A stretch of DNA of 50,053 nt from Ilumatobacteraceae bacterium (GCA_035633295.1 DASQFE010000603.1:1-50053), one strand, 5' to 3'; positions 938-45,471 are shown, counted from the stretch's first letter. Numbers and translations are program-made. Notes: generated by a model not told the origin, from the sequence alone.

Positions 938-954
938 TCTGACGGTTCGTCAGA
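938..954. promoter_or_regulatory. operator palindrome site 1: TCTGACG-GTT-CGTCAGA (perfect)
   Basis: Divergent region between the LLM gene (start 902) and the SDR (start 971). Overlapping TANNNT boxes TAGCAT (minus strand, 929..934) and TAGCTT (plus strand, 933..938) abut it. Confidence 0.7.
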
Positions 955-970
955 AACCAAGGAGCGCTCG

Positions 971-1882
971 TTGGCCGGATTCCTCGAAGGCAAAATCATC
1001 GCGATCACCGGCGGCGGTCGCGGGATCGGCCGCTGCATTGCTCTCGACGCCGCACGCGACGGAGCCAAGGTGGTCGTTGCCGACTACGGCGTGGCGATGG
1101 ACGGCAGCGAGCCGTCGTCAGACGTTGCCGATGAGGTCGTCGCCGAGATCATCGCGGCCGGCGGCGAGGCGATCGCGGCCGCGTCGGATGTGGGCACCAT
1201 GTCGGGTGGCGAAGCGATCGTCGCTGCGGCGATGGACACCTGGGGCCGGCTCGACGGCGCGGTCTGCGTGGCCGGGATCCTGCGCGAGCGGATGCTGTTC
1301 AACATGAGCGAAGAGGAGTTCGACGACGTCGTTCGCGTGCACCTCAAGGGCACGTTCACGGTCTACCGGGCTGCAGCCGCGGTGATGCGCAAGCAGGAGG
1401 GTGGGGGGTCGCTCATCGGGTTCACGTCAGGCGTCTGGGCGCTCGGTTCGGTGGCACAGGCCAACTACGCGGCTGCCAAGGGCGGCATCGTCTCGCTCAC
1501 CTACTCCGCAGCCGTTGGGCTCGAGCGGTACGGAGTACGAGCCAACGTCATCGCTCCGGTGGCGCGAACGCGCATGAGCGCCAACGTGCCGATGACCCTC
1601 GCCGAGAACGGCGACCCCGAGGACGTCGCTCCGATGGCCGTGTACCTCTTGAGCGACCGATCCAGGCACATCACGGGCCAGGTCTATTCGGTGGTCGGCA
1701 ACAAGATCGCCGTGTGGAGCCAGCCGAAGGAAGTCCGTGCGATGTACAACGACGACCGTTGGACGCCCGAGCTGATCGACGAGCGGCTGATGGCCACGGT
1801 GAAGTACGAGCACCTGCCGTTTCTCGACATGGTGGCCGAGATGAAGCGCGCGGCCGACGCCAAGCAGATGCCCAACGCATGA
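971..1882 (+). CDS. SDR, MFE-2 / Hsd4A-type (3R)-hydroxyacyl-CoA dehydrogenase-like
   Basis: TTG start 971 lies 7 nt after AAGGAG. Motifs: ITGGGRGIG, VVVADYGV..DGS..SSDVADEVVAEIIAAGGEAIA, NYAAAKGG (YxxxK). Block-by-block resemblance to the N-terminal dehydrogenase of multifunctional enzyme type 2. The part of track ORF 761..1882 upstream of 971 is Arg-rich shadow sequence. Confidence 0.85.
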   Translation: MAGFLEGKIIAITGGGRGIGRCIALDAARDGAKVVVADYGVAMDGSEPSSDVADEVVAEIIAAGGEAIAAASDVGTMSGGEAIVAAAMDTWGRLDGAVCVAGILRERMLFNMSEEEFDDVVRVHLKGTFTVYRAAAAVMRKQEGGGSLIGFTSGVWALGSVAQANYAAAKGGIVSLTYSAAVGLERYGVRANVIAPVARTRMSANVPMTLAENGDPEDVAPMAVYLLSDRSRHITGQVYSVVGNKIAVWSQPKEVRAMYNDDRWTPELIDERLMATVKYEHLPFLDMVAEMKRAADAKQMPNA

Positions 1883-3042
1883 TCGGGCCCCTCGCCGGGC
1901 TGACGGACGAGCAGTTCCGAAGGGTCGCTCGCGAGTGGTTGGCGGATCATGTGGTCGGCGCATTCGCCGAATTCCGCGGGCGCGGTGGCCCTGGCGACGA
2001 GGACATCGGTTTCGAGACGCGTGTGCAGTGGGAACAGGTGCTCGGTGACGCCGGCTGGATCGGGCTGGGCTGGCCGCACGATCATGGCGGGCACGGCGCG
2101 ACGATCGAGCAACAGGTCATCTGGGCCGAGGAGTACACACGGTCCGAAGCGCCCGCACGCGTGAACCACATGGGCGAGAATCTGCTCGCGCCCACGCTCA
2201 TCGCATACGGCACTGCTGCCCAGCGCGAACGGTTCCTGCCCGCGATTCGCAACGGCACGGAACGCTGGTGTCAGGGCTACAGCGAGCCGAATGCCGGCAG
2301 CGACCTGGCCAACGTGCAGACCCGGGCCCGCCTCGTCGGCGACGAGTGGGTCATCGACGGCCAGAAGGTGTGGACATCGCTCGCCCACGTGAGCCACTGG
2401 TGCTTCGTACTGGCGCGCAGCGAGGTCGGCTCGCAGCGCCACGCCGGCCTCACGTTCCTGCTCGTTCCGATGGACCAGCCCGGCATCGAGACGCGGCCGA
2501 TCGTGCAGCTGACCGGCGGCGGCGAGTTCAACGAGACGTTCTTCACCGACGCCCGCACCGACCGCGACATGGTGGTGGGTGAACCCGGCGACGGATGGCG
2601 CGTGGCCATGGGGCTGCTGGGTTTCGAACGCGGCATCTCGACGCTCGCCCAGCAGATCGGGTTCGAGCGCGAACTGCGCCACGCGATCGAACTTGCCCGG
2701 GTGCACGGCCGCCTGAGCGATGGCGTGATACGGCAACGGCTGATGGCCGCGCACACCGGGCTGCAGCTCATGCGCTGGAACGCGGTGCGGTCGATGAGTT
2801 CAGGTGTGCCCGGTCCCGAAGCGAGCATCTCCAAGCTCTTTTGGAGTACATGGCACCGCGAGCTCGGCAACCTGACGATCGATCTCCTCGGCGCCGCCGG
2901 ACTGGTCGGCGACGCCCGACACGGCGAACTGACGCTCGAGCAGAAGCTGTTCCTGTTCACCCGTTCCGACACGATCTACGGCGGCTCCAACGAGATTCAA
3001 CGTAACGTGCTCGGCGAGCGTGTGCTCGGCCTGCCGCGCTGA
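1879..3042 (+). CDS. acyl-CoA dehydrogenase (homomeric type, catalytic Glu present)
   Basis: ATGA start/stop overlap with the upstream SDR. Motifs: GYSEPNAGSDLA, WVIDGQKVWTS, C-terminal IYGGSNEIQRNVLGE (catalytic Glu). Confidence 0.9.
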   Translation: MIGPLAGLTDEQFRRVAREWLADHVVGAFAEFRGRGGPGDEDIGFETRVQWEQVLGDAGWIGLGWPHDHGGHGATIEQQVIWAEEYTRSEAPARVNHMGENLLAPTLIAYGTAAQRERFLPAIRNGTERWCQGYSEPNAGSDLANVQTRARLVGDEWVIDGQKVWTSLAHVSHWCFVLARSEVGSQRHAGLTFLLVPMDQPGIETRPIVQLTGGGEFNETFFTDARTDRDMVVGEPGDGWRVAMGLLGFERGISTLAQQIGFERELRHAIELARVHGRLSDGVIRQRLMAAHTGLQLMRWNAVRSMSSGVPGPEASISKLFWSTWHRELGNLTIDLLGAAGLVGDARHGELTLEQKLFLFTRSDTIYGGSNEIQRNVLGERVLGLPR

Positions 3043-3069
3043 CCCGACTCCTGCTGACCCGACTCCTGC
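3040..3069 (+). repeat. perfect 15-bp x2 tandem duplication TGACCCGACTCCTGC that starts with the upstream stop codon
   Basis: Unit 1 is 3040..3054 (TGA = stop of the ACAD gene). Unit 2 is 3055..3069. Together they fill most of the 42-bp spacer before ATG 3085. Confidence 0.9.
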
Positions 3070-3084
3070 TTGCGAGGTAGCCCC

Positions 3085-3855
3085 ATGAACTCACCGTCAC
3101 CCACCCCGACCCCACCGGAGGGCCACGGCCTGCTCGCAGGAAAGGGTGTCCTCGTCACGGCTGCGGCCGGGAGCGGAATCGGCTCGGCGACTGCCCGGCG
3201 TTGCCTGGAGGAGGGCGCCCGCGTGGTGATCGCCGACAAGCACGAGCGTCGCCTCGCCGAAACCGCCGAGCAGCTCGGTGTGGAGGCGTTCACGTGCGAC
3301 GTCACCGACGAGGCCAGCGTGCAGGCGATGATCTCCGGCGCCGCGGACGCGCTCGGTGGTATCGACGTGGTCGTCAACAACGCCGGGCTGGGAGGAACGG
3401 CCGAGGTCCACGAGATGACCGACGAGCAGTGGTCCGTGGTGCTCGATGTCACGCTCACCGGTACGTTCCGAGTCACTCGGGCCGCCCTCAACCACATGTA
3501 CCCGCGGGCAGCCGGCGTGATCGTCAACAACGCCTCAGTGCTCGGATGGCGAGCGCAGGCGGGCCAGGCCCACTACGCCGCGGCCAAGGCCGGCGTGATG
3601 GCCCTCACACGTTGCTCCGCCATCGAGGCCGCACCACGCGGCGTGCGCATCAACGCCGTTGCCCCGAGTCTGGCAATGCACGCCAACCTGGCCAAGGTCA
3701 CCTCCGACGAGCTGCTCGCCGAGCTGACCAGAGGCGAGGCGTTCGGCCGCGCCGCCGAGCCCTGGGAGATCGCCAACGTGATCGTGTTCCTCGCTTCGGA
3801 CTACAGCTCGTACATGACCGGCGAATCGGTGAGCGTCAGCTCACAACATCCCTGA
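3085..3855 (+). CDS. SDR family oxidoreductase (FabG-like)
   Basis: ATG 3085 is preceded by GAGGT. Motifs: VTAAAGSGIGSATA, NNAG, YAAAKAG, C-terminal YMTGESVSVS. Confidence 0.88.
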   Translation: MNSPSPTPTPPEGHGLLAGKGVLVTAAAGSGIGSATARRCLEEGARVVIADKHERRLAETAEQLGVEAFTCDVTDEASVQAMISGAADALGGIDVVVNNAGLGGTAEVHEMTDEQWSVVLDVTLTGTFRVTRAALNHMYPRAAGVIVNNASVLGWRAQAGQAHYAAAKAGVMALTRCSAIEAAPRGVRINAVAPSLAMHANLAKVTSDELLAELTRGEAFGRAAEPWEIANVIVFLASDYSSYMTGESVSVSSQHP

Positions 3856-3869
3856 GCTCGCGGCTCAGG
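3851..3869. terminator. 7-bp stem/5-nt loop hairpin CCTGAGC-tcgcg-GCTCAGG embedding both convergent stop codons
   Basis: Stops are at 3853..3855 (plus strand) and 3865..3867 (minus strand), one in each arm. There is no U-tract. Confidence 0.3.
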
Positions 3870-5313
3870 TGTTCAGGCGATCTGCGCGTAGCTGGCTGCG
3901 GCGCACCTTGCCGGCGTCGTCTCGCAGTGGCTCGGTGACGAACTCGAACTCCCGCGGGATCTTGTAGCGAACGAGCCGGTCGGCGAGGTACGCGCGCAGC
4001 TCGTCCGCAGTCACCACGTTGTCGTCGGCGAGCTGCACGATCGCATGGACTCGGTTGCCGAGGTCCTCGTCGGGCAGGCCGATGACCGCACTCGAGCGGA
4101 CATGGGGGTACTCGTCGATGGCTGCCTCGATCTCGGCCGGGTAGATGTTGGCACCCCCGGAGAGGATCATGTCACCGAGCCGGTCGGTCAGGAACACGAA
4201 CCCCTCCTCATCGATCCAGCCCATGTCGCCGAGCGACTCCCAGCCGTCGTCGGTCACCTTCGCGTCGGCTCCGACGTAGCGGTACGTGACACGGCCGTCC
4301 GGGGCGCGCATGTAGATCTCTCCGACCTCGCCGGGCGGTGCGTCGTTGCCCTCGTCGTCGATCACCTTCATCTCGCCGTAGATCGGCTTGCCGACGGAGC
4401 CTCGGTGGGCCAGCCACTGGTCGCCGCGGATGACGGTGACTGCCTGGGCCTCGGTACCGGCGTAGAGCTCGAAGATCTTCTCGCCCCCGAGCCAGTCGAT
4501 CCACTCCTCCTTCAGCCACGGCGGGCACGGTGCCGCCATGTGCCAGACGACCTGAATGGAGGACATGTCGTAGCTGCGGTGATCGTCGACGCGGGTGATC
4601 CGCAGCATCATCGTCGGCACGAGCAGCATCCACGTCGGCCGATGCTGTTGGGCGGCCACGAGCGTCGCCTCGGCATCGAACCGGGCCATGGTGATGATGT
4701 GGTTGCCGTTGACGAGCGCCTTGCTGGAATAGCTGAACGGGGCGTTGTGGTACATCGGCCCGGGCACGAGCATCACGCCGTCGCAGACCATTCCCATGCC
4801 GGGGTCGGCGTCGGTGTCGATCACTCCAGGGTCGCCGGCCACGATCAGTTTCGGTCGCCCCGTGGAACCACCGGATGTCGGCGCCTTCCACGTGGGCGAG
4901 ATCGCGTCGGGCAGCGCGGAATCGTCGAGCGAGGCATCGGGCAGCCAGCCGACGGGAAGGCACACCCTGCCCGGGTGTTCGCCCGGCTCCGCTCCGAGGA
5001 CCACCGGGGAGTTCGCCAGCTCGACGATCCCGTCGCGTTCGAGATGCGGGAGTCGGGGAGACACCGGTTGCGGGACGGCACCGATCTTCCAGGCCGCCAA
5101 CGTGGCGGCGAAGAACTCCGACGAGTTCGGCAGCCCAATGGTGACGTAGTCGCCATGGGCGACCCCGAACCCGATGAACGCCCTGGCCATCCGATTGGCG
5201 AGGGACTCGAGTTCGCCACGCGTGATCGTGACGTCGGCAACGGTGACGGCGGGGCGGTCGGGATCACGGCGGGCGCACTCGGTGAACGCTCGTCCAAGGG
5301 GAATCGTCGGCAT
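3865..5313 (-). CDS. AMP-dependent acyl-CoA synthetase (FadD family; FadD3-like candidate by position next to the ipd block)
   Basis: Motifs: PTSGGSTGRPKLI (AMP-binding P-loop), GEIYMR, LGDMGWIDEEGFVFLTDRLGDMILSGGANIYPAEIE, C-terminal GKVRRS. Start is the internal ATG 5313 (MPTIPLGRAF...). The upstream part of track ORF 3865..5445 overlaps the next gene and is Arg-rich. Confidence 0.88.
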   Translation of the reverse strand: MPTIPLGRAFTECARRDPDRPAVTVADVTITRGELESLANRMARAFIGFGVAHGDYVTIGLPNSSEFFAATLAAWKIGAVPQPVSPRLPHLERDGIVELANSPVVLGAEPGEHPGRVCLPVGWLPDASLDDSALPDAISPTWKAPTSGGSTGRPKLIVAGDPGVIDTDADPGMGMVCDGVMLVPGPMYHNAPFSYSSKALVNGNHIITMARFDAEATLVAAQQHRPTWMLLVPTMMLRITRVDDHRSYDMSSIQVVWHMAAPCPPWLKEEWIDWLGGEKIFELYAGTEAQAVTVIRGDQWLAHRGSVGKPIYGEMKVIDDEGNDAPPGEVGEIYMRAPDGRVTYRYVGADAKVTDDGWESLGDMGWIDEEGFVFLTDRLGDMILSGGANIYPAEIEAAIDEYPHVRSSAVIGLPDEDLGNRVHAIVQLADDNVVTADELRAYLADRLVRYKIPREFEFVTEPLRDDAGKVRRSQLRADRLNT

Positions 5314-5327
5314 GTCGGCGATGGTAA

Positions 5328-6101
5328 CTACTCGTCGATGGCGTCGATGGCGTCGAGGAATGCGGGACGGTCCCCCCCGCCGTGCAGCACCAGGTTCGCG
5401 CCGGTCACGTACGCGGCCGCCGACGAGGCGAGGAACAGGCAACACTCGGCGATGTCGGTCGACGACGCCATGCGTCCGGCGGGGATGGTTCGTTCGATCC
5501 TCTCGATCGACGCATCATCGCCGTAGTGCAACCCCGCCTGCTCGGTGCGCACGAGCCCCGCGGTGATCGTGTTGACCCGCACCTTGGGTGCCCACTCATG
5601 GGCTGCGGTCATGGCGAAGCCGGCGAGACCGGCCTTGGCTGCGCCGTACGCGGCAACCGTCGGCGCCGGCCGCTGCGCGGCGATGCTGCCGATGTTCACG
5701 ATGACGCCGCCCTGCGCCTGACGCTGCATGTGGTGATTGGCCCGCTGACTCACGTACATCGGGGCCAGGAGATTCAACGCCACGATCCGCTCGCTGAACC
5801 GCGGCGGTGCGGTGGTGGTGTCGGCCGGTGGTGAACCGCCGGCGTTGTTGACGACCACGTCGAGGCGTCCGTACCGTCCGACGACGTCGTCGATCATCGC
5901 CCACGCCTGCTCACCATCGCGCAGATCGGCGGCGACGAAGCCCCACGACGGCGGCAGCGGCGACTCGCCGACCGAACGAGCACACACCACCACCTGGGCG
6001 CCCGCCTCGGCGAACCGCGACGCGAGACCGCGACCGATTCCCTTGGTCCCCCCGGTGACCAGCACCACCTGGCCGGTGAAGTCGAATGTCGCCGTCGCCA
6101 C
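5328..6101 (-). CDS. SDR family oxidoreductase
   Basis: GTG start 6101. Motifs: VTGGTKGIG, VVNNAGG, YGAAKAG, VTGANLVLHGG. First gene of a leftward unit. TACAGT lies 6 nt upstream of the start. Confidence 0.88.
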   Translation of the reverse strand: MATATFDFTGQVVLVTGGTKGIGRGLASRFAEAGAQVVVCARSVGESPLPPSWGFVAADLRDGEQAWAMIDDVVGRYGRLDVVVNNAGGSPPADTTTAPPRFSERIVALNLLAPMYVSQRANHHMQRQAQGGVIVNIGSIAAQRPAPTVAAYGAAKAGLAGFAMTAAHEWAPKVRVNTITAGLVRTEQAGLHYGDDASIERIERTIPAGRMASSTDIAECCLFLASSAAAYVTGANLVLHGGGDRPAFLDAIDAIDE

Positions 6102-6128: not shown

Positions 6129-6145
6129 TCTGACGCGGTGTCAGA
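6129..6145. promoter_or_regulatory. operator palindrome site 2: TCTGACG-CGG-TGTCAGA (1 mismatch)
   Basis: Lies between the SDR start (6101, minus strand) and echA20 (6167, plus strand). Confidence 0.65.
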
Positions 6146-6152
6146 TTGGGGG

Positions 6153-6158
6153 TACCAT
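6153..6158 (+). promoter_or_regulatory. -10 box TACCAT, 8 nt upstream of GTG 6167
   Basis: TACCAT ccacgccc GTG. It lies downstream of the alternative TTG 6146 start, which argues for 6167. Confidence 0.4.
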
Positions 6159-6166
6159 CCACGCCC

Positions 6167-6958
6167 GTGGGGATCTCGACGAGCATCGACGAAACCGGCA
6201 TCGCCGAGGTGGTGATGGACTGCCCGCCGGTCAATGCACTCACGGTCGCCGAGTGGTTCGAAGTCGCCTCGCAGGTGACGGCCGCCGGCCACGACAGTGG
6301 CGTTCGTGTCGTCGTGCTGCGCGCCGAGGGCAAGGGCTACAACGCCGGCGTCGACATCAAGGAGATGCAGAACACGACCGGGTTCAGTGCACTCCTTGGC
6401 GCCAACAAGGGGTGCTACGCGGCCTTTGCCGCGGTGTACGACTGTGAGGTACCGGTGATCGCCGAAGTCCACGGCTTCTGCCTCGGCGGCGGCATCGGCC
6501 TGGCCGGCAATGCCGACATCATCGTCGCGAGCGACGACGCCTACTTCGGCCTGCCCGAGGTCGATCGCGGCGCGCTCGGCGCCGCCACCCACCTCTCCCG
6601 CCTGGTCCCGCAGCACAAGATGCGCGCCATGGTCTACACCTCGGCAACGGCAACTGCTGCCGAACTGCATCACTTCGGCAGCATCCACTCGGTCGTTGCA
6701 CGCAGCGAGCTTCGCGATGCATCGAGGGCGCTTGCGGCCCAGATCGCATCGAAGTCACCAACGGTCATCCGCGCCGCCAAGGAAAGCCTCAACGGCATCG
6801 ACCTGTGGGACGTGAAGAAGAGCTACCGCTTCGAGCAGGGGTTCACGTTCGAACTGAACCTCAGTGGAGTTGCCGACGAGCTGCGCGACGATTTCGCCGG
6901 CACCACCAAGTCCGACTTCGCCGGCACGACAACATCCGGATCCGAGCGGGCCACATGA
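6167..6958 (+). CDS. echA20: enoyl-CoA hydratase/crotonase, EchA20-like
   Basis: Crotonase motifs: GKGYNAGVDIKEM, HGFCLGGGIGLAGNADI, FGLPEVDRGALGA. It lies directly upstream of ipdA with an ATGA overlap. The start is ambiguous (TTG 6146 or GTG 6167). I chose GTG 6167 because TACCAT (6153..6158) sits 8 nt upstream of it. Confidence 0.8.
   Translation: MGISTSIDETGIAEVVMDCPPVNALTVAEWFEVASQVTAAGHDSGVRVVVLRAEGKGYNAGVDIKEMQNTTGFSALLGANKGCYAAFAAVYDCEVPVIAEVHGFCLGGGIGLAGNADIIVASDDAYFGLPEVDRGALGAATHLSRLVPQHKMRAMVYTSATATAAELHHFGSIHSVVARSELRDASRALAAQIASKSPTVIRAAKESLNGIDLWDVKKSYRFEQGFTFELNLSGVADELRDDFAGTTKSDFAGTTTSGSERAT
6890..6937 (+). repeat. in-frame 24-bp x2 tandem duplication at the C-terminus of EchA20 (DFAGTTKS / DFAGTTTS)
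   Basis: gatttcgccggcaccaccaagtcc followed by gacttcgccggcacgacaacatcc. Confidence 0.85.
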
Positions 6959-7827
6959 GCCGCGACAAGCGCATCACCCACGACGAGGCCATCGGCTTGC
7001 TCGAGAGCGGCATGACGATCGGCATCGGCGGATGGGGGAGCCGCCGCAAGCCGATGTCGCTCGTGCGAGCGCTGCTGCGAAGCGATCTGAGTGACCTCAC
7101 CATCGTCACCTACGGGGGACCCGACGTCGGGCTGCTCGCCGCTGCCGGCAAGATCGCAAAGCTGGTGTACGGGTTCGTGTCACTCGACTCGATCCCGCTC
7201 GAACCGCACTTCCGCGCCGCCCGCCAGCAGGGCACCATCGCCGAGTGCGTCGAGTACGACGAGGGCATGCTGCAGTGGGCGCTCTACGCCGGCTCGTTGC
7301 GGCTGCCGTTCCTGCCCACTCGCGCCGGCCTCGGCTCGGGTGTGGTCGACGTCAACCCGGCGCTTCGCACGGTGCGCTCGCCCTACGCCGACGGCGAGGA
7401 GCTCCTTGCCGTTCCGGCGATCCGTCTCGATGCGGCCTTCGTGCACCTGAACCGCTCCGATCACTCTGGCAACGCCCAGTTCCTCGGACCTGACCTGTAC
7501 TTCGACGACCTGTTCCTCAACGCGTGTGAGCCGGGCCGTCGCTTCGTTTCGTGCGAGCGCGTCATCACGACCGAGGAACTGCTCGACGAAGGAACCTTCC
7601 ACACGCTGCGGATCAACCGCTCGATGGTCGACGGCGTCATCGAGGCGCCATCGGGCGCCCACTTCACCAATTGTCAGCCCGACTACGAACGCGACGAGGC
7701 GTTCCAGAAGGAGTACGCCACGGCAGCCGGCGACCCCGAACGGTGGGCGGCATTCACCCAACGGTTCCTCAGCGGAACCGAGGCTGACTACCAAGCGGCC
7801 GTTGCCGACTGGAGGACGGCGCTGTGA
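6955..7827 (+). CDS. ipdA: CoA-transferase-fold subunit A of the COCHEA-CoA ring hydrolase (IpdA)
   Basis: Motifs: SGMTIGIGGWGSRRKPMSLVRALLRSDLSDLTIVTYGGPDVGLL, LPFLPTRAGLGS, IEAPSGAHFT, FLSGTEADYQAAV. Near-collinear with mycobacterial IpdA as I remember it. ATGA overlap with echA20. Confidence 0.9.
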   Translation: MSRDKRITHDEAIGLLESGMTIGIGGWGSRRKPMSLVRALLRSDLSDLTIVTYGGPDVGLLAAAGKIAKLVYGFVSLDSIPLEPHFRAARQQGTIAECVEYDEGMLQWALYAGSLRLPFLPTRAGLGSGVVDVNPALRTVRSPYADGEELLAVPAIRLDAAFVHLNRSDHSGNAQFLGPDLYFDDLFLNACEPGRRFVSCERVITTEELLDEGTFHTLRINRSMVDGVIEAPSGAHFTNCQPDYERDEAFQKEYATAAGDPERWAAFTQRFLSGTEADYQAAVADWRTAL

Positions 7828-8579
7828 ACGCCCGTCTCGCCGACATCGTCGTGCTCGCGGCGGCCGAGGCATTCCGCGGTGACGGTGAGATCTTCGCGTC
7901 GGGAATGGGCACGATCCCGATGCTCGGAGCGCGGCTCGCCCGCAGCACCTTCGAACCCGACCTCATGGTGAGCGATGGTGAGGCGTTCTTCGTCGGCAAC
8001 GACCTTCCGATCGGCGGCACCGACAAGCTGGTCGAGGGGTGGATCCCGTTCCGCACCGTGTTCGACACGCTGTGGGGTGGGCGTCGCCACGTGATGATGG
8101 GTGCGTCACAGATCGACGATCGCGGCAACACGAACATTGCCAACATCGGGCCGTGGTCGAAGCCGAAGGCCCAGCTCCTCGGCGTTCGTGGTGGGCCCGG
8201 CAACACGATCAACCACGCCACGAGTTTCTGGATACCCAAGCACACCCCGTCGGTGTTCACTGCTGCGGTCGACATGGTGAGCGGCATCGGCTACGACCGT
8301 GCCGAGGGACTGGGCCCGTGGGTGCAGGCCCACCACGACCTTCGACGCGTGGTCACGAACCTGGCGGTGCTCGACTTCGAGTGCGATGAGCGACGGATGC
8401 GCCTTCGCAGTACCCACCCCGGCATCTCCGTAGCCGACGTCGTTGCCGCAACCGGTTTCGAGCTGGTGATCCCCCCTGACGTGCCGACGAGCCATGCGCC
8501 GACCGACGTCGAGTTGGCCGTCATCGACCGCCTCGACCCGACGGGCATCCGCCTGCGCGAAGTGCCCGACCCCGAATGA
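7824..8579 (+). CDS. ipdB: CoA-transferase-fold subunit B (IpdB)
   Basis: GTGA overlap with ipdA. Motifs: AAAEAFRGDGEIFASGMGTIPMLGARLAR, MMGASQIDDRGNTNIANIG, GVRGGPGNT. Confidence 0.88.
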   Translation: MNARLADIVVLAAAEAFRGDGEIFASGMGTIPMLGARLARSTFEPDLMVSDGEAFFVGNDLPIGGTDKLVEGWIPFRTVFDTLWGGRRHVMMGASQIDDRGNTNIANIGPWSKPKAQLLGVRGGPGNTINHATSFWIPKHTPSVFTAAVDMVSGIGYDRAEGLGPWVQAHHDLRRVVTNLAVLDFECDERRMRLRSTHPGISVADVVAATGFELVIPPDVPTSHAPTDVELAVIDRLDPTGIRLREVPDPE

Positions 8580-13358: not shown

Positions 13359-13375
13359 TCTGACGGCCCGTCAGA
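13359..13375. promoter_or_regulatory. operator palindrome site 3: TCTGACG-GCC-CGTCAGA (perfect)
   Basis: Directly abuts the TACAGT -10 box (13353..13358, minus strand) of the CaiB-cyp142 unit. Confidence 0.7.
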
Positions 13376-13536: not shown

Positions 13537-13543
13537 TCGACAG

Positions 13544-16195: not shown

Positions 16196-16201
16196 ATCTC
16201 G

Positions 16202-38137: not shown

Positions 38138-38637
38138 GCCACGACCGCTGCGTTGGCCTCGGAATCCGAACTGATCAGATCGAAGCAGGCGATGTCGGTG
38201 ATGCCGCCCTGCGGGTCGCCCGACCAGCGAACGGCGACTCGCGATCCGGTGGAGATCGAGTCGGCGCTGCACGCGTCGACGGCATGGAACATCTCGACGT
38301 CGGCGCCGTCGAGCCGTATCAGCGCCCACGCGAAGGGGTGGTCGAGCGGCTGATCGGCTTGTGGTTCGGCCTGCCACGCCCACGACGTGACGGTGCCGTG
38401 CTCGCCGACCGATACCCACTCGGTACAGGGTGCACCTGTGATCGGGTCGAACTCGGCAGGCGGCACATAGACCCGACCGTCGCTGCCTCGCGTGCCTTCG
38501 ATTCGACCGTCGCGCAGCGACGTGAAGAATCGCGCCAGTGTGGTCCCCACCGTTCTCGAATACGGGTAGGTCATCAGCAGAGGCGCCGTGAAACAACCGT
38601 CCTCGGTACGGAGGAACTCGAACGTCGCCCCAGACAT
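38134..38637 (-). CDS. DUF35-like OB-fold protein without zinc-ribbon cysteines
   Basis: SLRDGRIEGTRGSDGRVYVPPAEFDP...GTVTSWAW...ALIRLDGAD has DUF35 topology, but the CxxC pairs are absent. First gene of the operon, 30 nt from operator site 6. Confidence 0.72.
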   Translation of the reverse strand: MSGATFEFLRTEDGCFTAPLLMTYPYSRTVGTTLARFFTSLRDGRIEGTRGSDGRVYVPPAEFDPITGAPCTEWVSVGEHGTVTSWAWQAEPQADQPLDHPFAWALIRLDGADVEMFHAVDACSADSISTGSRVAVRWSGDPQGGITDIACFDLISSDSEANAAVVA

Positions 38638-38666: not shown

Positions 38667-38683
38667 TCTGACGAGTCGTCAGA
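38667..38683. promoter_or_regulatory. operator palindrome site 6: TCTGACG-AGT-CGTCAGA (perfect)
   Basis: Lies between the DUF35/Ltp operon (start 38637, minus strand) and the ABC transporter operon (start 38751, plus strand). Confidence 0.7.
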
Positions 38684-38750: not shown

Positions 38751-40220
38751 ATGGCTCGAAGGTCTGTTCGCGTTGCTGCTGCGGTCACCTCGTTGATGCT
38801 CGTCGCCGGAGCCTGCGGGGGATCGCGCGACGAGACGACGACTCCCACTGCACCGGCTCCCACTGTGACCACGGAGACTTCGACCGACACCGGCGCTGCG
38901 ACCGACACGACTGACACGAGCACGGCGACCGACACGACCATGGTCTCGGATGTCGAAATGTTCGGTGATGCCCCGTGGCCCTGCGGCCCGGGCAGCGGCG
39001 ACAACACCGACGACGGCAGCACCGTCGGGGTCACGGCCGACTCGATCGACATCGCCACCGGCGACGACGCCGGCTATGCCGCCTCACCGGGCCTCAACCA
39101 CGAGATCACCGATGCGATGAATGCCATGGTGGCCAAGTGCAACGAGCTCGGAGGTATCAACGGCCGAACGATCAACCTCAACTACTACGACGCGAAGATC
39201 CTGGAGGTCAGCGCGGCGATTCAGAGCGCCTGCGATGACGAGAACTTCTTCCTCGTCGGCCAGGGTTGGGCGTTCGACCAGAACCAGGAGGAGATCAGGC
39301 TGGGTTGCGGCCTCCCAGCGGTGCCGGGGTACACGGTGAGCGCCGCATTCGCCCATGGCAAGGACGTGTTCCAAGGCGTCCCCAACCCGTCGGATGAAAC
39401 CACGAGCGGAGTCTTTGCCCAGATCGCCGAGCTCTTCCCCGAGGAATCCAAGCAGGTCGGCACATTGACGGGCGCCATCAGCTTCACCCAGGAGACCCGC
39501 GACAAAGTGGTTGCAACCGCTCCCGCGTTCGGCTGGGGGTTCGCCGAGACCACGCTCGAGAGCAACATCTCCGGTGAGCCGGACTGGACGCCGTTCGTCA
39601 AGCAACTCGAGGACGCCGGTGCCGAGATGGTGTCCTGGCAGGGAACCTGCCTGCCCAGCCTGCTGCTGTTCGCCCAGACCGCGAAGCTCAATGGTCTCGA
39701 TGTGCCGATCGTGGTCGATTCGAACCACTACACGGCCGAGTGTGCGGCGTCCAACACCGACGGTGCACTCGACAACCTGTACGTCCGCATGTCGTTCGTG
39801 CCCTTCGAAGATGCGAGCGCCAACCCGGCCACGCAGGACTACCTCGACCTGATCGCCGCCAACGGAGGCGACACGGCGATGCTCGGCGCGCAGAGCACGT
39901 CGTCGTTCCTGCTCTGGGCAACGGCGGCCGCGGCCTGTGGTGACCAGCTCACACGAGAGTGCGTCCTCACCAATCTCGCCGCCACCACGTCGTGGACCGG
40001 GCACGGGCTGCACGCCGAGTCGGACCCCGGAGGCAATCACCCGCCCAAGTGTTCGTCGATCATCCGTCTCGTCGGCACCGAGTTCGAACGGGTGGTGCCG
40101 ACCGAGGCCGCCGGTTTCGAATGCGACGACGCATGGATCAGCCCGATCTCAGGGACCGCCGCTCTCGAAGCCGCCAAGCTCGACGAGAACCGCATCTCGC
40201 AGCAGTTCGCCGCGGGATGA
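38751..40220 (+). CDS. ABC transporter substrate-binding lipoprotein, LivK/HAAT family
   Basis: Signal peptide plus lipobox LVAGAC, then a Thr/Asp-rich linker. GVTADSIDIATG....NELGGINGRTINLNYYD matches the Peripla_BP_6 pattern. ATG 38751 is preceded by GGGGGGAA. Confidence 0.82.
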   Translation: MARRSVRVAAAVTSLMLVAGACGGSRDETTTPTAPAPTVTTETSTDTGAATDTTDTSTATDTTMVSDVEMFGDAPWPCGPGSGDNTDDGSTVGVTADSIDIATGDDAGYAASPGLNHEITDAMNAMVAKCNELGGINGRTINLNYYDAKILEVSAAIQSACDDENFFLVGQGWAFDQNQEEIRLGCGLPAVPGYTVSAAFAHGKDVFQGVPNPSDETTSGVFAQIAELFPEESKQVGTLTGAISFTQETRDKVVATAPAFGWGFAETTLESNISGEPDWTPFVKQLEDAGAEMVSWQGTCLPSLLLFAQTAKLNGLDVPIVVDSNHYTAECAASNTDGALDNLYVRMSFVPFEDASANPATQDYLDLIAANGGDTAMLGAQSTSSFLLWATAAAACGDQLTRECVLTNLAATTSWTGHGLHAESDPGGNHPPKCSSIIRLVGTEFERVVPTEAAGFECDDAWISPISGTAALEAAKLDENRISQQFAAG

Positions 40221-40283
40221 TCGATCCCACCCACCGACGACCGACTCACTCGGTGATCCCCCGCTGACTCGACGGGAGTCTGG

Positions 40284-42560
40284 ATGCAGGACTTTCTCGC
40301 GTACACCGTTCTGGGCATCTGCCTCGGGTCGGTGTACGCCATCGCCGCCGCCGGCATCGTGGTCACCTACACCACGTCGGGGATGTTCAACTTCGCCCAT
40401 GGCGCCGTGGCGACCATGTGTGCGCTCGTCTACTGGCAGTTGAATCAGGCGTGGCACGTGCCCGGCCTCATCGCCGCCGTACTGACGGTCTGCTGCTTCG
40501 CTCCGGCGCTCGGAATCTTCCTGGAACTGGTGGTGATGCGCGGGCTGCGCGACACCAACGAGGTCACCAAGCTGGTCGTTCCCATCGCAGTACTCCTTGC
40601 GATCACGGGAACGGCCACGTGGATCTGGTTCCGTGACGGCGCCCGCGCGATCGTGCCCAAGAGGTTCTTCGGCGCGCAGAGCATCGACGTGCTCGGCCAG
40701 CCCGTCTACTACCACCAGGTCATCGGTGTCGTGCTCGCAGCGGCGATCGCCGTCGGGCTCTACCTCGTGATGTACCGGACGCGGCTCGGGGTCACCATGC
40801 GGGCGACGGTCGACGATCGACGCTTGCTCATGCTCAACGGGGGACGACCCGACCACGCCAGCATGGCCAGCTGGGGCATCGGCTGCGGGCTCGCCGGACT
40901 GGCCGGGGTGCTGCTCGCCTCCCAACAGGGCGCGCTGCAGGTCTTCGCGCTCACCCTGCTCGTCATCGACTCCTACGCCGCAGCGGTCGCCGGACGCCTG
41001 CGCAGCGTGCCCATCGCCTACGTCGGCGCGATGGTCCTCGGGCTCGCCCGGTCGTACTTCGACATGGTGTCCAACGCCGGCCAGAACTGGCCGGCGATCG
41101 CCAACATGCGCAACGCGATCCCGGCGATCCTGCTCTTCGCCGCGCTCTTGTTGCTGCCGCAGGGCCGATTGCGCGGCGCGGTCGTGACGCGCACCCGTGA
41201 ACGGTTCAACGTCCCGACGATGAAACAAGCCGTCGCATGGGGCGCGATCCTCATCGTGGGCGTGGCAATGCTGCAAGCCTTGATGAAGGGCGCGGCCGTC
41301 ATCAACCTCACCAACAGCATGGCCCTCTCGCTCATGGCATTGTCGTTGGTGCTCCTCACCGGGTACGCCGGCGAGATCAACCTTGCCGTGTATGCCTTCG
41401 CCGGAATTGCCCTGATCGCAGCATGGCAGTTCGACGTCGGCCCGGGCGGCCTCGCCACCCAGGAGTCGCTCTCGCTCGCCGCAATCGTGCTGGCGATGGT
41501 GATCTGTGCGTTCATCGGCGGGCTCATCGCCTTGCCTGCGCTGCGCCTGAGCGGCCTGTACCTGGGCTTGGCGACGTTCGCCTTCGGAGTCATCGTCTAC
41601 CAGTTGGTCATCCTCCAGCCGAGGCCGCTGCAGGGCTCGATCTTCGGTCAGCAGTTCACCGTCAACTTCTTCACCAACGGGTCGGTCACCGTTCCCCGCC
41701 CGCGCTGGTTCGGCGTCGACTTCCGCAACGAGCGCGCCTTCCTGATCCTGTTGACCGTGATGTTCGTCGTCATCGGCATCATGCTGATCCGACTCCGGCG
41801 GAGCGCGTACGGTCGGATGATCATCGCCATGAAGGACAGCCCGGCAGCGTGCGCCACCCTGGGGATGAACATCACGCGACTCAAGCTCGGCGTGTTCATG
41901 CTGTCGGCCGCGATCGCCGGTCTCGGCGGTCTGATGTGGGCGGCGCAGCAACGTACGGTCGCCAGCAACAACAACTTCGACGGGTTCGCCAGCCTGCTGC
42001 TGTTCATGATCGCGGTGGTGTGCGGAATCGGCTACGTCAGCGGGGCCCTCCTGGCCGGGGTCTTCCTCAGCGTCCTCAGCCTGGCGATCCCCAACGTGTT
42101 CGAGAAGCTGGGTTCCGACTACGAGTCGCTGCACTGGCTGTTCGTCACCGGCCTGGGCAACTTCGCCAAGTTCATCGGTGCTGCCTTGATCGGCATCCGG
42201 CTGGCCCGGAACCCGAGCGGTATCGCCCAGCAGGTGATGGATGGCTTCCGCCCGTTGAGGCGCGTTCCAGTGGGGACGGGCGTCTGGGTGGCGTCGATCA
42301 TGATGTGGTGGCTGCTGGCCTGGCGTGGCGTCATCGGCAACTGGACGTTCGCGCTCGGCGTCATCGCCTCGGCGTTCATCGTTCCACGACTCTTGATGGC
42401 GATGTACCCGCAGCGCTTCATCGATGAGGGCAACGACGGCCAGGAGGATCTCGACATGATCGGGCTGTCCAGGCCGTTCGTCACCTCAGATCGAGACCGG
42501 TTCGATCGTGAGCTCGCGATACCGGTTGCCAGGGGGGGTCGCTCCGATGTCACTGCTTGA
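40284..42560 (+). CDS. fused LivH-LivM type branched-chain/HAAT ABC permease (758 aa)
   Basis: N-terminal half: LGICLGSVYAIAAAGIVVTYTTSGMFNFAHGA (LivH). C-terminal half: LLTGYAGEINLAVYAFAGI...ALRLSGLYLGLATFAFG (LivM). Many hydrophobic spans. Confidence 0.85.
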   Translation: MQDFLAYTVLGICLGSVYAIAAAGIVVTYTTSGMFNFAHGAVATMCALVYWQLNQAWHVPGLIAAVLTVCCFAPALGIFLELVVMRGLRDTNEVTKLVVPIAVLLAITGTATWIWFRDGARAIVPKRFFGAQSIDVLGQPVYYHQVIGVVLAAAIAVGLYLVMYRTRLGVTMRATVDDRRLLMLNGGRPDHASMASWGIGCGLAGLAGVLLASQQGALQVFALTLLVIDSYAAAVAGRLRSVPIAYVGAMVLGLARSYFDMVSNAGQNWPAIANMRNAIPAILLFAALLLLPQGRLRGAVVTRTRERFNVPTMKQAVAWGAILIVGVAMLQALMKGAAVINLTNSMALSLMALSLVLLTGYAGEINLAVYAFAGIALIAAWQFDVGPGGLATQESLSLAAIVLAMVICAFIGGLIALPALRLSGLYLGLATFAFGVIVYQLVILQPRPLQGSIFGQQFTVNFFTNGSVTVPRPRWFGVDFRNERAFLILLTVMFVVIGIMLIRLRRSAYGRMIIAMKDSPAACATLGMNITRLKLGVFMLSAAIAGLGGLMWAAQQRTVASNNNFDGFASLLLFMIAVVCGIGYVSGALLAGVFLSVLSLAIPNVFEKLGSDYESLHWLFVTGLGNFAKFIGAALIGIRLARNPSGIAQQVMDGFRPLRRVPVGTGVWVASIMMWWLLAWRGVIGNWTFALGVIASAFIVPRLLMAMYPQRFIDEGNDGQEDLDMIGLSRPFVTSDRDRFDRELAIPVARGGRSDVTA

Positions 42561-43278
42561 GTGCCACGCGCTGAACATGAGTTTCGGTGGAGCAAGGGTG
42601 TTGATCGATGTCGACATCACCGCCGAAGCCGGGGCGATCACGGGCCTGATCGGACCGAACGGAGCCGGCAAGACCACGCTGTTCAACGTGATCACCGGGT
42701 TGCTCCACCCGACTTCGGGCACCGTGCTGCTCGATGGTCGCAACATCACCGGGCTGAAACCGTTCAAGCGGTCACGCCTCGGTGTCGCTCGCACGTTCCA
42801 GCGACTCGAGCTGTTCACGTCGCTGTCGGTGCGCGACAACATTCGGGTGGCCGGCGAGATCGGCGCGAAATGGCAGCGCAACTCCACCGATCTGACTGCT
42901 GAGACCGACCGGGTACTCGACCAGCTCGGCATCAGCGATCTCGCCGACCGCGACGTGACCGAGATCCCGACCGGCATGGCGCGACGGGTCGAGGTCGGCA
43001 GGGCGTTGATGACCCGACCGAAGATCCTGCTGCTCGATGAGCCCGCCTCGGGGCAGAACGAGGACGAGACCGACGAATTCGCCGAACTGCTGCTGGAGCT
43101 GTGCGCTGCCGGAACGTCGATCCTCCTCGTCGAACACGACGTGGCCCTCGTGATGAAGGTGTGCTCGTTCGTGCAGGTGCTCGACTTCGGAGTTGTCATC
43201 GCCACCGGCACGCCGGAGGAGATCCAGAGCAACAGCCTGGTCCTCGATGCCTACCTCGGGGCGGAACAGACACCGTGA
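42547..43278 (+). CDS. ABC transporter ATP-binding protein (LivG-like)
   Basis: Walker A GPNGAGKTT, Walker B LLLDEP, H-loop VEHD. The signature motif is degenerate (PTGMARRV). Overlaps the permease end by 14 nt. Confidence 0.85.
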   Translation: MSLLECHALNMSFGGARVLIDVDITAEAGAITGLIGPNGAGKTTLFNVITGLLHPTSGTVLLDGRNITGLKPFKRSRLGVARTFQRLELFTSLSVRDNIRVAGEIGAKWQRNSTDLTAETDRVLDQLGISDLADRDVTEIPTGMARRVEVGRALMTRPKILLLDEPASGQNEDETDEFAELLLELCAAGTSILLVEHDVALVMKVCSFVQVLDFGVVIATGTPEEIQSNSLVLDAYLGAEQTP

Positions 43279-43988
43279 CCGCGCCCAGCCTCGAGCTCAT
43301 CGACGTGACCGCTGGATACGGCCCGATCGTCGTGCTGCAGGGCGTGTCGCTCGAAGTGGGCCACGGGGAGATCCTTGCTCTGCTCGGACCCAACGGTGGC
43401 GGCAAGTCGACGACCCTGCAGGTGTGCAGTGGGTTGCTGCCGATCACTCATGGTCAGGTGCGACTCGCCGATCATTCGGTCACCGGAACGTCGCCACACG
43501 CCTTGGCCAGAGCAGGCGTGTGCGCCGTGCCGGAAGGGCGTGGCGTCTTCCCCAACCTCACGGTGCGCGAGAACCTGATGATGGCCACGCATACGGGCCT
43601 GCTGCTCGCCGACATCGAGGACGCGACGTATGTGCGTTTCCCTGTACTCGGCGAGTGCCGTTCTCAGCTTGCGGGAACCCTGTCGGGCGGCCAACAGCAG
43701 ATGTTGTCGATGTCGAGGGCGTTGGCCACCGATCCGGCCGTCCTGTTGCTCGACGAGTTGTCGATGGGCCTGGCGCCGATGATCGTTGCATCGCTGTACG
43801 AGATCGTTGCCGGGGTGGCCGCCGAAGGTGTCTCGGTGCTCGTGGTCGAACAGTTCGCCCGGTCAGTGCTCGGCATCGCCGACCGAGCTGCCATCATGCT
43901 CAACGGACAGATCGCTCGCTCAGGGCCCCCGGACGAGATCGCGGAAGAACTCTCAGCTGCCTACATGGGCAGAAAGGCGAAGGTATGA
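43275..43988 (+). CDS. ABC transporter ATP-binding protein (LivF-like)
   Basis: GTGA overlap. Motifs: GPNGGGKST, LSGGQQQML, LLLDEL, VEQ. Confidence 0.85.
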   Translation: MTAPSLELIDVTAGYGPIVVLQGVSLEVGHGEILALLGPNGGGKSTTLQVCSGLLPITHGQVRLADHSVTGTSPHALARAGVCAVPEGRGVFPNLTVRENLMMATHTGLLLADIEDATYVRFPVLGECRSQLAGTLSGGQQQMLSMSRALATDPAVLLLDELSMGLAPMIVASLYEIVAGVAAEGVSVLVVEQFARSVLGIADRAAIMLNGQIARSGPPDEIAEELSAAYMGRKAKV

Positions 43989-44356
43989 CCGACCCAGGTC
44001 GTAAGGAACAGTTTGCTGCCGACGTGGCTGCGATGCAGGTGAAGACGTCGGGCAAGGCGTCCGCCGAACGCGCGTCGAGCACCTTGGGCATCATCTTGAT
44101 GGTCGCATCACTGGTCATCGGCATCGGGTCGTACGTGACGGCCTCGAACGAGACCAACGTGCTCGACCAGAACGAACTCATCATCCTCGGGTTCGTGTGC
44201 GTCACCATGGCGATCATCGGCGCGGCGTTGTGGATCCGTGTGGCACTCGTACGTTTCTGGCGGTTCTGGTTGCTGCGCTCGCTCTACGAGGGCCAGGCTC
44301 ATCTCGACGAGGTGGTCAAGGCCATCCGCGACCGTGATGGCGCGCCGGGCCACTAG
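43985..44356 (+). CDS. small membrane protein (2 predicted TM helices), translationally coupled to the ABC genes
   Basis: ATGA overlap with the livF-like gene. Hydrophobic spans LGIILMVASLVIGIGSYV and LIILGFVCVTMAIIGAALWI. No recognisable family. Confidence 0.6.
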   Translation: MTDPGRKEQFAADVAAMQVKTSGKASAERASSTLGIILMVASLVIGIGSYVTASNETNVLDQNELIILGFVCVTMAIIGAALWIRVALVRFWRFWLLRSLYEGQAHLDEVVKAIRDRDGAPGH

Positions 44357-44394
44357 AACACCACCACCCCGAAGGGGTTCTGGGGCGGGCTGGG

Positions 44395-45423
44395 TCAGTC
44401 CAGTACCAGTTCGGCCATCGTCCGCAGGGTCTCGATCGAGCCCCCGACGAGCATCGTCGTGACACGGCTGTGCTTCCAGGCCTCGAGGTCGTCGCGAACC
44501 TTGGCCTTCGGGCCGACGAGGCAGATCTCATCGATCATTGCGTTCGGCACTGCGGCGATCGCCTCGTCCTGCTTGGCGTCGAGGAACAACGCCTGGATCC
44601 GGTCCACGGCGGCCTCGTGGCCCAGCCGGCGAAACACGTCGGCGTGGAAGTTCATCTCCTTGGCTCCCATTCCGCCGACATAGAGCGCAAGCGTCGGTCG
44701 CAGCCGGTCGTAGGCGCGCTCCAGGTCGTCGTCGATGGCAACGTTGACCGTGGGGAGGATCTCGAACGTGTCGGGCGTACGCCGAGCCGTCGGCCGGGCG
44801 AAGCCCTCGGCGAGTGACGGACCATAGAGCTCCTCGTGGCGCGGCGCGTAGAAGATGGGGAACCAGCCATCGGCGATCTCCGCGGCGAGCGCCACGTTGC
44901 GCGGCCCCTCTGCACCGAGGAAGATCGGCACGTCGACGCGCAGGGGGTGCGTCATGATGTTGAGCGCTTTGCCGAGGCCGAGGCCGTCGGTGGCGGGAAT
45001 CGGGTACTCGGGCCCGTCATTGGTCAATCGCTCCTCGCGGGCGAGAATCCGCCGCACGATGTCGACGTACTCGCGCGTACGCGCCAGCGGACGGGTGAAG
45101 CGCTGGCCGTACCAGCCCTCGACGACCTGCGGGCCGCTCACCCCGAGACCCAGACAGAATCGACCCCCCGACAGGTGGTCCATCGTCACCGCTGCCATGG
45201 CAGTTGCGGTCGGAGTCCGCGCCGACATCTGGATGAGGTTGGTGCCGAGCCTGATCGTGCTCGTCGACGCGCCCCACCAGGCGAGCGGGGAGATCGCATC
45301 GCTCCCCCACGACTCGGCCGTCCACGCCGAATCGAACCCGAGCCGTTCCACCTCCTGGAGAATCTGAGGAACACCGGGCGGCATCGAGCGGCCCCAATAT
45401 CCGATGTGCCAACCGAGCTTCAT
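44395..45423 (-). CDS. LLM-class F420-dependent oxidoreductase
   Basis: MKLGWHIGYWG...GFDSAWTAESWGSDA...GRFCLGLGVSGPQVVEGWYG. Operator site 7 lies 32 nt upstream. Confidence 0.88.
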   Translation of the reverse strand: MKLGWHIGYWGRSMPPGVPQILQEVERLGFDSAWTAESWGSDAISPLAWWGASTSTIRLGTNLIQMSARTPTATAMAAVTMDHLSGGRFCLGLGVSGPQVVEGWYGQRFTRPLARTREYVDIVRRILAREERLTNDGPEYPIPATDGLGLGKALNIMTHPLRVDVPIFLGAEGPRNVALAAEIADGWFPIFYAPRHEELYGPSLAEGFARPTARRTPDTFEILPTVNVAIDDDLERAYDRLRPTLALYVGGMGAKEMNFHADVFRRLGHEAAVDRIQALFLDAKQDEAIAAVPNAMIDEICLVGPKAKVRDDLEAWKHSRVTTMLVGGSIETLRTMAELVLD

Positions 45424-45454
45424 CAGATCACCTTAGGCTAGGTTGCTGCTGGTT

Positions 45455-45471
45455 TCTGACGGGGCGTCAGA
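45455..45471. promoter_or_regulatory. operator palindrome site 7: TCTGACG-GGG-CGTCAGA (perfect)
   Basis: Lies between the LLM gene (start 45423, minus strand) and the ACAD pair (start 45496, plus strand). Confidence 0.7.

Follow-up and report, generated by a model that had tools for sequence, protein, structure and literature searches.

In a 50,053-nucleotide stretch of DNA from an Ilumatobacteraceae bacterium (GCA_035633295.1 DASQFE010000603.1:1-50053), seven promoter regions carry a copy of the palindrome TCTGACG-N3-CGTCAGA. This whole stretch is called the window below. The palindrome is quite probably the operator of a homodimeric TetR-family repressor of the TetR_C_38 subfamily (Pfam PF19352), and the repressor gene would lie outside the window. 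The initial annotation of this DNA had proposed a dimeric repressor encoded elsewhere; this proposal is supported, and the candidate is now a single TetR family. The regulon is conserved across Actinomycetota.

The initial annotation had listed seven copies, five of them perfect and two with one and two mismatches. We recovered all of them at the same positions and with the same sequences. Operator 1 (938..954, TCTGACGGTTCGTCAGA, perfect) is located between a leftward gene for an LLM (luciferase-like) oxidoreductase (GTG at 920) and a rightward operon SDR-ACAD-SDR (TTG at 971; ACAD, acyl-CoA dehydrogenase). Operator 2 (6129..6145, TCTGACGCGGTGTCAGA, one mismatch) separates a leftward SDR-FadD operon from a rightward operon for ECH, CoA-transferase A and B, NMO, MaoC and SDR proteins. 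Operator 3 (13359..13375, TCTGACGGCCCGTCAGA, perfect) stands between the leftward CoA_transf_3-P450 and the rightward DUF35-thiolase-LLM-SnoaL-APH operons. Operator 4 (21616..21632, TCTGACGACCCGTCAGA, perfect) belongs to an internal promoter upstream of an operon for a 262-aa protein, an epimerase-like protein and an LLM. Operator 5 (24156..24172, TCTGACGGTGTATCAGA) has two mismatches and lies between a leftward operon of a truncated SDR, an SDR and EthD and a rightward operon of SDR, SnoaL_2 and an uncharacterised protein. Operator 6 (38667..38683, TCTGACGAGTCGTCAGA, perfect) divides the leftward DUF35-DUF35-thiolase-like operon from a rightward operon for a branched-chain-type ABC importer. 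Operator 7 (45455..45471, TCTGACGGGGCGTCAGA, perfect) is found between a leftward LLM gene and a rightward ACAD-ACAD pair. When the whole window (G+C 67%) was shuffled 100 times with its dinucleotides preserved, 0.42 ± 0.62 sites with at most two mismatches were expected against the 7 observed, and none of the 100 shuffles reached seven. Relaxing the window scan to three mismatches gave no additional site.

A motif scan over one genome per GTDB species returned at least 120 matches. A matrix was built from 159 non-redundant actinobacterial sites. It is symmetric; its core positions hardly vary, in part as an effect of how the sites were selected. The extended consensus is the 19-bp wTCTGACG-N3-CGTCAGAw. 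TetR-type operators are palindromes of about 15-19 bp with half-sites spaced by roughly one helical turn, and this motif agrees with that, its half-site centres being 10 bp apart. The only conserved flanking feature is an A or T abutting the 17-mer (positions 0 and 18; A 59%, T 25%), in DNA of about 70% G+C, and the N3 spacer is nearly free. Of the pair changes in the imperfect copies, 61 break the pairing and only 2 are compensatory. Together with the unconserved flanks, this indicates recognition of half-sites by a dimeric protein and not an RNA stem or an element resembling repetitive extragenic palindromes (REP).

To describe the placement of the sites, we built a gene map of the window from codon usage, which contains 51 genes and leaves about 2% of the bases intergenic. 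It confirmed that six sites occupy divergent promoter regions and one is internal: six of the seven divergent intergenic regions carry a site, and the 21616 site is located between two tandem genes. The earlier statement that no site falls inside a gene holds in that all sites are in promoter regions, except that the 21616 site overlaps the stop codon, and nothing more, of the upstream fragment of a thiamine pyrophosphate (TPP) enzyme. Every site is indeed close upstream of at least one start codon; the distance is 12-31 nt by our measurement and not the 13-36 nt given before. The sole longer distance is the 150 nt from the 13359 site to the rightward DUF35 gene. In total, 13 of about 15 transcription units of the window start at a site. 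The sole divergent intergenic region without a site is 34561-34583 (23 nt), between an ECH gene and a seven-gene operon (Amidohydro_2, ADC, SDR, Amidohydro_2, FadD, CoA_transf_3, uncharacterised). Since these genes belong to families that are site-bearing elsewhere, they may be controlled differently here.

We also read the -10 hexamers, leaderless starts and operator positions from the sequence (window segments 902-945, 6101-6128, 13346-13358, 21596-21615, 24128-24155, 24173-24187, 38637-38666 and 45423-45454). Leaderless genes of actinobacteria typically show a TAnnnT hexamer close to the start codon and lack a Shine-Dalgarno sequence. Such a hexamer stands 6-8 nt before the ATG or GTG of all seven leftward genes, none of which has a Shine-Dalgarno sequence; one of the hexamers is imperfect (TAGAAC). 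The operator is 0-19 nt upstream of these hexamers, where it would cover the spacer and the -35 region. The rightward genes beginning at GTG 6167 and GTG 24185 have a layout of the leaderless type as well. Thus, with all seven leftward and at least two rightward genes arranged in this way, most units of the regulon look leaderless. The rightward genes at TTG 971 and ATG 45496 have a Shine-Dalgarno sequence; in these two cases the operator either overlaps the predicted -10 or comes directly after it. Operator 1 precedes the leftward -10 (TAGCAT) by 3 nt and is located just past the rightward one (TAGCTT). Operator 3 directly adjoins the leftward -10 (TACAGT), and 6 nt separate this hexamer from the ATG. 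At Operator 5, where both promoters look leaderless, the rightward -10 (TACCGT) begins directly after the site, and 6 nt lie between it and the GTG. At Operator 7, the rightward -10 (TAGGTT) precedes the site by 10 nt. The leaderless-type layout is also seen in the TetR_C_38 genes of Streptomyces, Actinomadura and Yinghuangia.

The same arrangement recurs in other genomes. Actinomycetota account for 98 of the at least 120 matches listed; among them are 45 Streptomyces, 32 Acidimicrobiia lineages and 13 unclassified actinobacterial metagenome-assembled genomes (MAGs), and single matches include Actinomadura, Nocardioides and Mycobacterium. About 88 of the 98 (~90%) are intergenic according to a crude gene caller. 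The flanking Pfam families, counted in loci among the matches listed, are those of the window units: SDR (27), LLM (18), DUF35/thiolase-like (14), ACAD (13), CoA_transf_3 (9), AMP-binding (8) and ECH (7), and also Amidohydro_2 and Amidohydro_3. It had been proposed to check whether the motif is conserved upstream of orthologous operons in related genomes, and for at least five of the seven window sites a site is present at the matching position of orthologous or homologous genes. The counterpart of Operator 1 is identical to it, spacer included, and lies between orthologues of genes 1-3 at 79-89% identity (L096; L numbers denote loci in other genomes). Perfect sites stand at the position of Operator 2 between ECH and SDR orthologues (L116), and at that of Operator 3 between the CoA-transferase and DUF35 orthologues (L088). 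For Operator 4, Streptomyces homologues of the 262-aa protein (35-36% identity) have a site upstream in L002, L004, L064, L095 and L102. For Operator 6, L055 and L081 contain Acidimicrobiia homologues of the binding-protein gene that are preceded by a perfect site. The Yinghuangia locus L138 contains the same gene set as the 6129 site of the window, with the SDR gene followed by a TetR_C_38 gene.

A gene cluster conserved in Streptomyces, found in L008, L012, L023, L029, L044, L047, L072, L107 and others, comprises LLM and SDR genes, two operators separated by 45-70 bp, and genes for a 374-aa LLM, Amidohydro_3, an aldehyde dehydrogenase and an amino-acid permease. Its 374-aa LLM is 46% identical to a 408-aa LLM of the window. 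The 50-nt gap before this window gene holds a lone half-site TCTGAC (16149-16165, TCTGACCGGGCGTTCGC, four mismatches), and a perfect site precedes the orthologue of this gene in L021, which is 67% identical. The element at 16149-16165 may be a decayed internal operator.

None of the products of the 51 window genes is a DNA-binding protein by Pfam, as had been noted before. A six-frame screen of the window with a helix-turn-helix (HTH) consensus revealed no DNA-binding domain, and tblastn of the window with the candidate TetR_C_38 family gave nothing (best E 0.25). The 262-aa protein encoded downstream of the 21616 site was considered as a hidden regulator and rejected; it has no Pfam match and, in our reading, looks like an EthD/dimeric alpha-beta-barrel enzyme. 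We therefore turned to the loci selected by the motif. Pfam analysis of 128 singleton neighbours and the HTH-consensus screen did not reveal a recurrent regulator family adjoining the sites in these loci. An iterative HTH search found five TetR-bearing open reading frames in about 95 of them, among the matches listed. Three are TetR_N + TetR_C_38 orthologues with an identical recognition helix, and all three are in site-headed units (L017, L020 and L042, the last from Actinomadura). The other two are single-chain double-TetR proteins. A perfect site heads the L017 and L020 operons, which end with the TetR_C_38 gene. The ATG of the L042 gene is inside ACTGACGGTATGCCAGA, and the gene after it starts inside the near-identical ACTGACGGTATGTCAGA. 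After the stop codon of the Actinomadura TetR gene, L042 carries a long perfect palindrome (5065-5110, GCGCTTGTATCTGATGcccCATCAGATACAAGCGC) with an operator-like centre (TCTGATG-N3-CATCAGA), which may be either a hairpin of the terminator type or a variant of the operator.

As these loci had been chosen by the motif itself, we avoided circularity by fetching further loci with the TetR_C_38 protein alone. It turned out that in six lineages the transcription unit of the TetR_C_38 gene is preceded by a site that is perfect or has one mismatch. A perfect site precedes FadD, SDR and TetR genes in L129 (Acidimicrobiales; site at 6186), L131 (7373) and L137 (7441), and two FadD genes, an SDR gene and the TetR gene in L133/L134 (5823). 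In L135/L136 a perfect site at 6816 is followed by two ACAD genes and an SDR gene, and the TetR start has a one-mismatch site 51 nt upstream. In L138 (Yinghuangia) a one-mismatch site at 9072 is located between an operon for ECH, CoA-transferase A/B and NMO and the SDR-TetR genes. From base composition, about 5e-5 perfect sites are expected by chance per 20-kb locus. Together with the motif-selected loci, the operator is found in the promoter of the TetR_C_38 gene's own unit in L017, L020, L042, L129, L131, L133, L135, L137, L138 and L140. The initial annotation had suggested looking for a regulator gene preceded by the same palindrome, and the TetR_C_38 gene in site-headed units of related genomes answers to this description. 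In Streptomyces, Actinomadura and Yinghuangia the TetR start codon is within a half-conserved TAA[G/A]CTGACGG[C/T]ATG; the Streptomyces gene sits among canonical sites, and its start codon is inside TAAGCTGACGGCATGACAGG. A more distant homologue on a plasmid of Sphingomonas paeninsulae (36% identical) is divergent from a CoA-transferase-FadD-ECH-SDR-ECH operon. We searched its own intergenic region for inverted repeats with arms of 6-8 nt and a spacer of up to 7 nt. The sole perfect palindrome in this divergent promoter is ACTGAC-GATGT-GTCAGT, which shares the CTGAC-N5-GTCAG core. A Streptomyces paralogue on the plasmid NZ_CP107773 was set aside, as its gene context is unrelated.

The candidate regulator is a protein of 208-229 aa with Pfam domains TetR_N and TetR_C_38, and the family has 5086 homologues at E <= 1e-10. 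The N-terminal arm DGRVxGxR and the recognition helix SPATFYQYF are invariant in 34 homologues down to 35% overall identity. The AlphaFold model of the monomer (pLDDT 91.8) has nine helices, the TetR-repressor fold and an N-terminal arm, and Foldseek matched it to TetR-family repressors with a probability of 1.0. The nearest solved structures, at 14-20% identity, are the acyl-CoA-binding FadR of Bacillus and Thermus and EthR. A PDB sequence search gave no match beyond the HTH, and no NCBIfam equivalog came near its cut-off. Literature searches by the motif and by PF19352/TetR_C_38 found no description in the papers covered; the half-site is absent from Balhana 2015 and Ahn 2012. The TetR_C_38 gene is frequently co-transcribed with the gene of an acyl-CoA synthetase. 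This co-transcription and the FadR-type structural neighbours make an acyl-CoA thioester the most likely inducer by analogy.

Several observations speak against TetR_C_38 as the binder or call for caution. TetR genes are so common in Actinomycetota that proximity to a site says little by itself, and only five of them were found in about 95 motif-selected loci. In most lineages the TetR_C_38 gene is the distal member of the regulated operon, and hence the protein could be a member of the regulon and not what binds the operator. The TetR-proximal element of Streptomyces has four mismatches, its left half being perfect and its right half degenerate. The regulator gene was not located in the source genome, of which only Logan contigs of 2-5 kb (SRR6683737) are indexed. 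The assignments of -10 elements and leaderless starts are predictions from the sequence. The two pointers to an acyl-CoA ligand are the FadD co-transcription and neighbours that are 14-20% identical. One alternative is that the palindrome is the operator of another global regulator and that the TetR_C_38 gene is just regulated by it, perhaps as a local sub-regulator with a similar box. The distal position of the gene in site-headed operons of most lineages, with no private operator, fits this, and so does the fact that no regulator adjoins most sites. In addition, other regulators recur near parts of the regulon, namely SARP/AfsR-type proteins in Streptomyces and double-TetR proteins in L069 and L117. 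However, CTGACG half-site elements span the TetR_C_38 start codon in three genera, the L135 gene has its own one-mismatch site, and the Sphingomonas homologue keeps the operator core in its own promoter. The recognition helix of TetR_C_38 is invariant while the remaining protein diverges. The double-TetR proteins have a different HTH, and SARPs bind direct repeats, which counts against a SARP as the binder. Taking this together, we consider another global regulator unlikely. The Streptomyces SARP/AfsR-type regulator (Trans_reg_C + BTAD + NB-ARC + TPR; 970-1119 aa where the full length is known) adjoins the LLM/SDR/amidohydrolase cluster in L015, L016, L023, L072, L075 and L080 and at 1-609 in L123-L128. 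Its gene is mostly divergent from Amidohydro_2 with a site between them, 9-10 kb from the TetR_C_38 gene, and the protein may form a second layer of control in Streptomyces. The single-chain proteins with two TetR_N domains (Mce3R-like; L069 1617-2852, minus strand; L117 ~300-1300, minus strand) are encoded next to a Peripla_BP_6 gene with a perfect site.

A short, perfect, GC-rich inverted repeat near start codons could also act as RNA, folding within 5' leaders into a hairpin (7-bp stem, 3-nt loop) that is bound by a protein or affects stability or translation, or it could be a REP-like dispersed hairpin. This is very improbable: the changes in imperfect copies are overwhelmingly non-compensatory (61 against 2), neither flanks nor loops are conserved, and at the leaderless-looking leftward genes the site is upstream of the predicted -10 and so would be outside the transcript. 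Moreover, the copies are in 5' promoter regions and in none of the four convergent gaps of the window, and their positions are kept at orthologous promoters in genomes with 55-89% protein identity. The genes themselves suggest a variant operator of KstR, KstR2 or Mce3R, the known actinobacterial repressors of steroid and lipid genes, since the EchA20/IpdAB/IpdC-like, ChsH/Ltp2-like, ACAD-pair and LLM/SDR genes of the window resemble members of their regulons. Nevertheless, such a variant is hardly credible. The window contains no match to the KstR/KstR2 boxes TnnAACnnGTTnnA and AnCAAGnnCTTGnT, in agreement with the earlier remark that the motif differs from them, and the candidate regulator scores 23 bits against the KstR equivalog, whose cut-off is 280. 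Mce3R of M. tuberculosis is an asymmetric double-TetR protein with a non-palindromic operator (PMC11667970), and it was rejected as the binder for this reason.

A TetR_C_38 repressor acting at the palindrome would work as follows. One operator would serve each of the six back-to-back promoter regions, and one the internal promoter. A dimer on the operator would cover the spacer and -35 region of the leftward promoters and, at several rightward genes, the -10 and the transcription start. Such a dimer would block RNA polymerase in both directions, so that one site could repress, rather than activate, two divergent units. A pathway intermediate, most likely an acyl-CoA thioester, would lift the repression, and the repressor would be autoregulated through the operator that heads its own transcription unit. 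The DNA-reading head is invariant from Acidimicrobiia to Streptomyces, and the operator core is recognisable even in Sphingomonas. It is conceivable, although we hold this only tentatively, that one TetR repressor is a genome-wide master switch over the LLM, SDR, ACAD, CoA-transferase and DUF35-thiolase paralogues for recalcitrant alicyclic or branched organic acids, with the same operator network answering to different inducers in each lineage. In that case, the divergence of the ligand-binding domain to 35% identity would reflect the re-tuning of the network to these inducers. Apparently, the mechanism is conventional: the system looks like a TetR repressor with a CoA-pathway regulon, from a widespread and apparently uncharacterised subfamily.

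The units of the window headed by sites include five LLM oxidoreductases, many SDRs and three acyl-CoA dehydrogenases (two adjacent), as well as an acyl-CoA synthetase, a family III CoA-transferase with a P450, two DUF35/thiolase-like operons and an ABC importer. By the gene map and Pfam they run, from left to right, as follows. An LLM gene (Bac_luciferase) on the minus strand (3..920) is cut by the window edge, and the plus-strand SDR, ACAD and SDR genes occupy 971..3855. The minus-strand unit 3865..6101 encodes an SDR and an acyl-CoA synthetase (AMP-binding). The plus-strand unit 6146..10895, with a likely start at GTG 6167, encodes ECH, CoA-transferase A and B, an NMO-type reductase, MaoC and an SDR and resembles EchA20-IpdABC. 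It is followed by the family III CoA-transferase and cytochrome P450 genes (10912..13346, minus) and by a plus-strand unit for a DUF35-type fusion, a thiolase-like protein, LLM, SnoaL_4 and APH (13526..18949), which starts 150 nt from its site. The first product of the latter (13526-14938) is a 470-aa fusion protein with a ChsH2-type OB domain at the C-terminus only. The genes of the 262-aa protein, an NAD-dependent epimerase-like protein and an LLM (18961..21596, minus) come next. The minus-strand unit 21628..24128 (truncated SDR, SDR, EthD, TPP-enzyme fragment) may be partly decayed: the TPP-enzyme fragment (21628-22452) is a central domain without the flanking domains, and the truncated SDR (23643-24128) matches profile positions 86-235 only. 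The operon headed by the 24156 site, the most degenerate of the seven with its two mismatches, may be decaying. On its other side are the SDR, SnoaL_2 and uncharacterised genes (24185..26363, plus). Two DUF35 (ChsH2-OB) and two thiolase-like proteins are encoded at 35425..38637 (minus). The importer unit 38751..44356 (plus), with a likely start at ATG 38751 after a Shine-Dalgarno sequence, encodes a Peripla_BP_6 binding protein, a fused permease, two ATPases and a small uncharacterised protein. The 758-aa permease (40284-42560) has two BPD_transp_2 stretches, which we read as a putative LivH-LivM-type fusion. An LLM gene (44395..45423, minus) and the two adjacent acyl-CoA dehydrogenase genes (45496..47738, plus) complete the series.

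The gene families named in the initial annotation are correct at the Pfam level, and the names cyp142, echA20, ipdABC and ChsE are analogies. Its steroid and mycobacterial framing did not stand. No Rieske oxygenase, KstD-type or Hsa-type Pfam domain was found among the 51 genes, and in Streptomyces the same regulon is found ahead of LLM/SDR/amidohydrolase clusters. With no core steroid-ring genes in the window, the steroid label depends on resemblance to side-chain and HIP-type modules (HIP, methylhexahydroindanedione propionate). The closest relatives of the window proteins are from MAGs of Acidimicrobiia or of unclassified actinobacteria, which makes an origin in Acidimicrobiia, and not in a mycobacterium, probable. 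The likely role of the regulon is the degradation of alicyclic or branched carboxylic acids via CoA esters, using LLM, SDR and P450 oxidoreductases.

Acidimicrobiia and Streptomyces carry large, poorly understood sets of LLM, SDR, ACAD and CoA-transferase paralogues. With a shared operator and a named candidate repressor, the boundaries of the regulon can be defined in any genome, and the habit of annotating these clusters as "steroid" on the model of Mycobacterium can be corrected. If TetR_C_38 is the repressor, its small gene would be a genetic handle on the whole gene set, the ligand that releases it should point to the substrate of the pathway, and this would be the first function for the Pfam family TetR_C_38.

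Among the known systems, BkaR was rejected as the binder because of its published operator, GTTA-N-T-N4-A-N-TAAC. Ms6564, a TetR-family "master regulator" of Mycobacterium smegmatis, has the operator ACGAGACG-N3-CGTCTCGT (PMC3273814). It is likewise a palindrome with a 3-nt spacer and the inner core GACG-N3-CGTC, with many dispersed targets reported. However, the outer half-site bases are CGA and not TCT as here, and the reported regulon consists of DNA repair and diverse genes. Ms6564 was rejected as the binder, as only the inner core is shared, and it did not appear in sequence or structure among the PDB matches of the candidate regulator. Mce3R resembles our system as a TetR-type repressor of LLM, SDR, ACAD and ECH genes, and double-TetR proteins are encoded near sites in L069 and L117; the differences are the symmetric palindrome found here and the HTH of these two proteins, which is unlike that of the candidate regulator. 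The TetR-type FadR proteins provide the closest solved folds (5gpa, 3whc with stearoyl-CoA and 3anp with lauroyl-CoA) and also control a CoA-pathway regulon, and in many of the lineages here the regulator gene shares its operon with an acyl-CoA synthetase gene. Nevertheless, the identity is 14-20%, the TM-scores are 0.57-0.65, and the match to the FadR family reaches 20 bits, with the cut-off at 200. KstR and KstR2 have CoA thioesters as ligands. These regulators of cholesterol and HIP catabolism in Mycobacterium and Rhodococcus are similar to our candidate as autoregulated TetR repressors with short palindromic operators in many divergent promoters of a CoA-dependent catabolic cluster, and the EchA20/IpdAB/IpdC-like, ACAD, FadD and thiolase-like gene families are common to both. 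The system described here differs in the operator sequence, in the TetR_C_38 C-terminal domain, in the lack of core steroid-ring genes and the dominance of LLM and SDR genes, and in its spread over Acidimicrobiia, Streptomyces and beyond.

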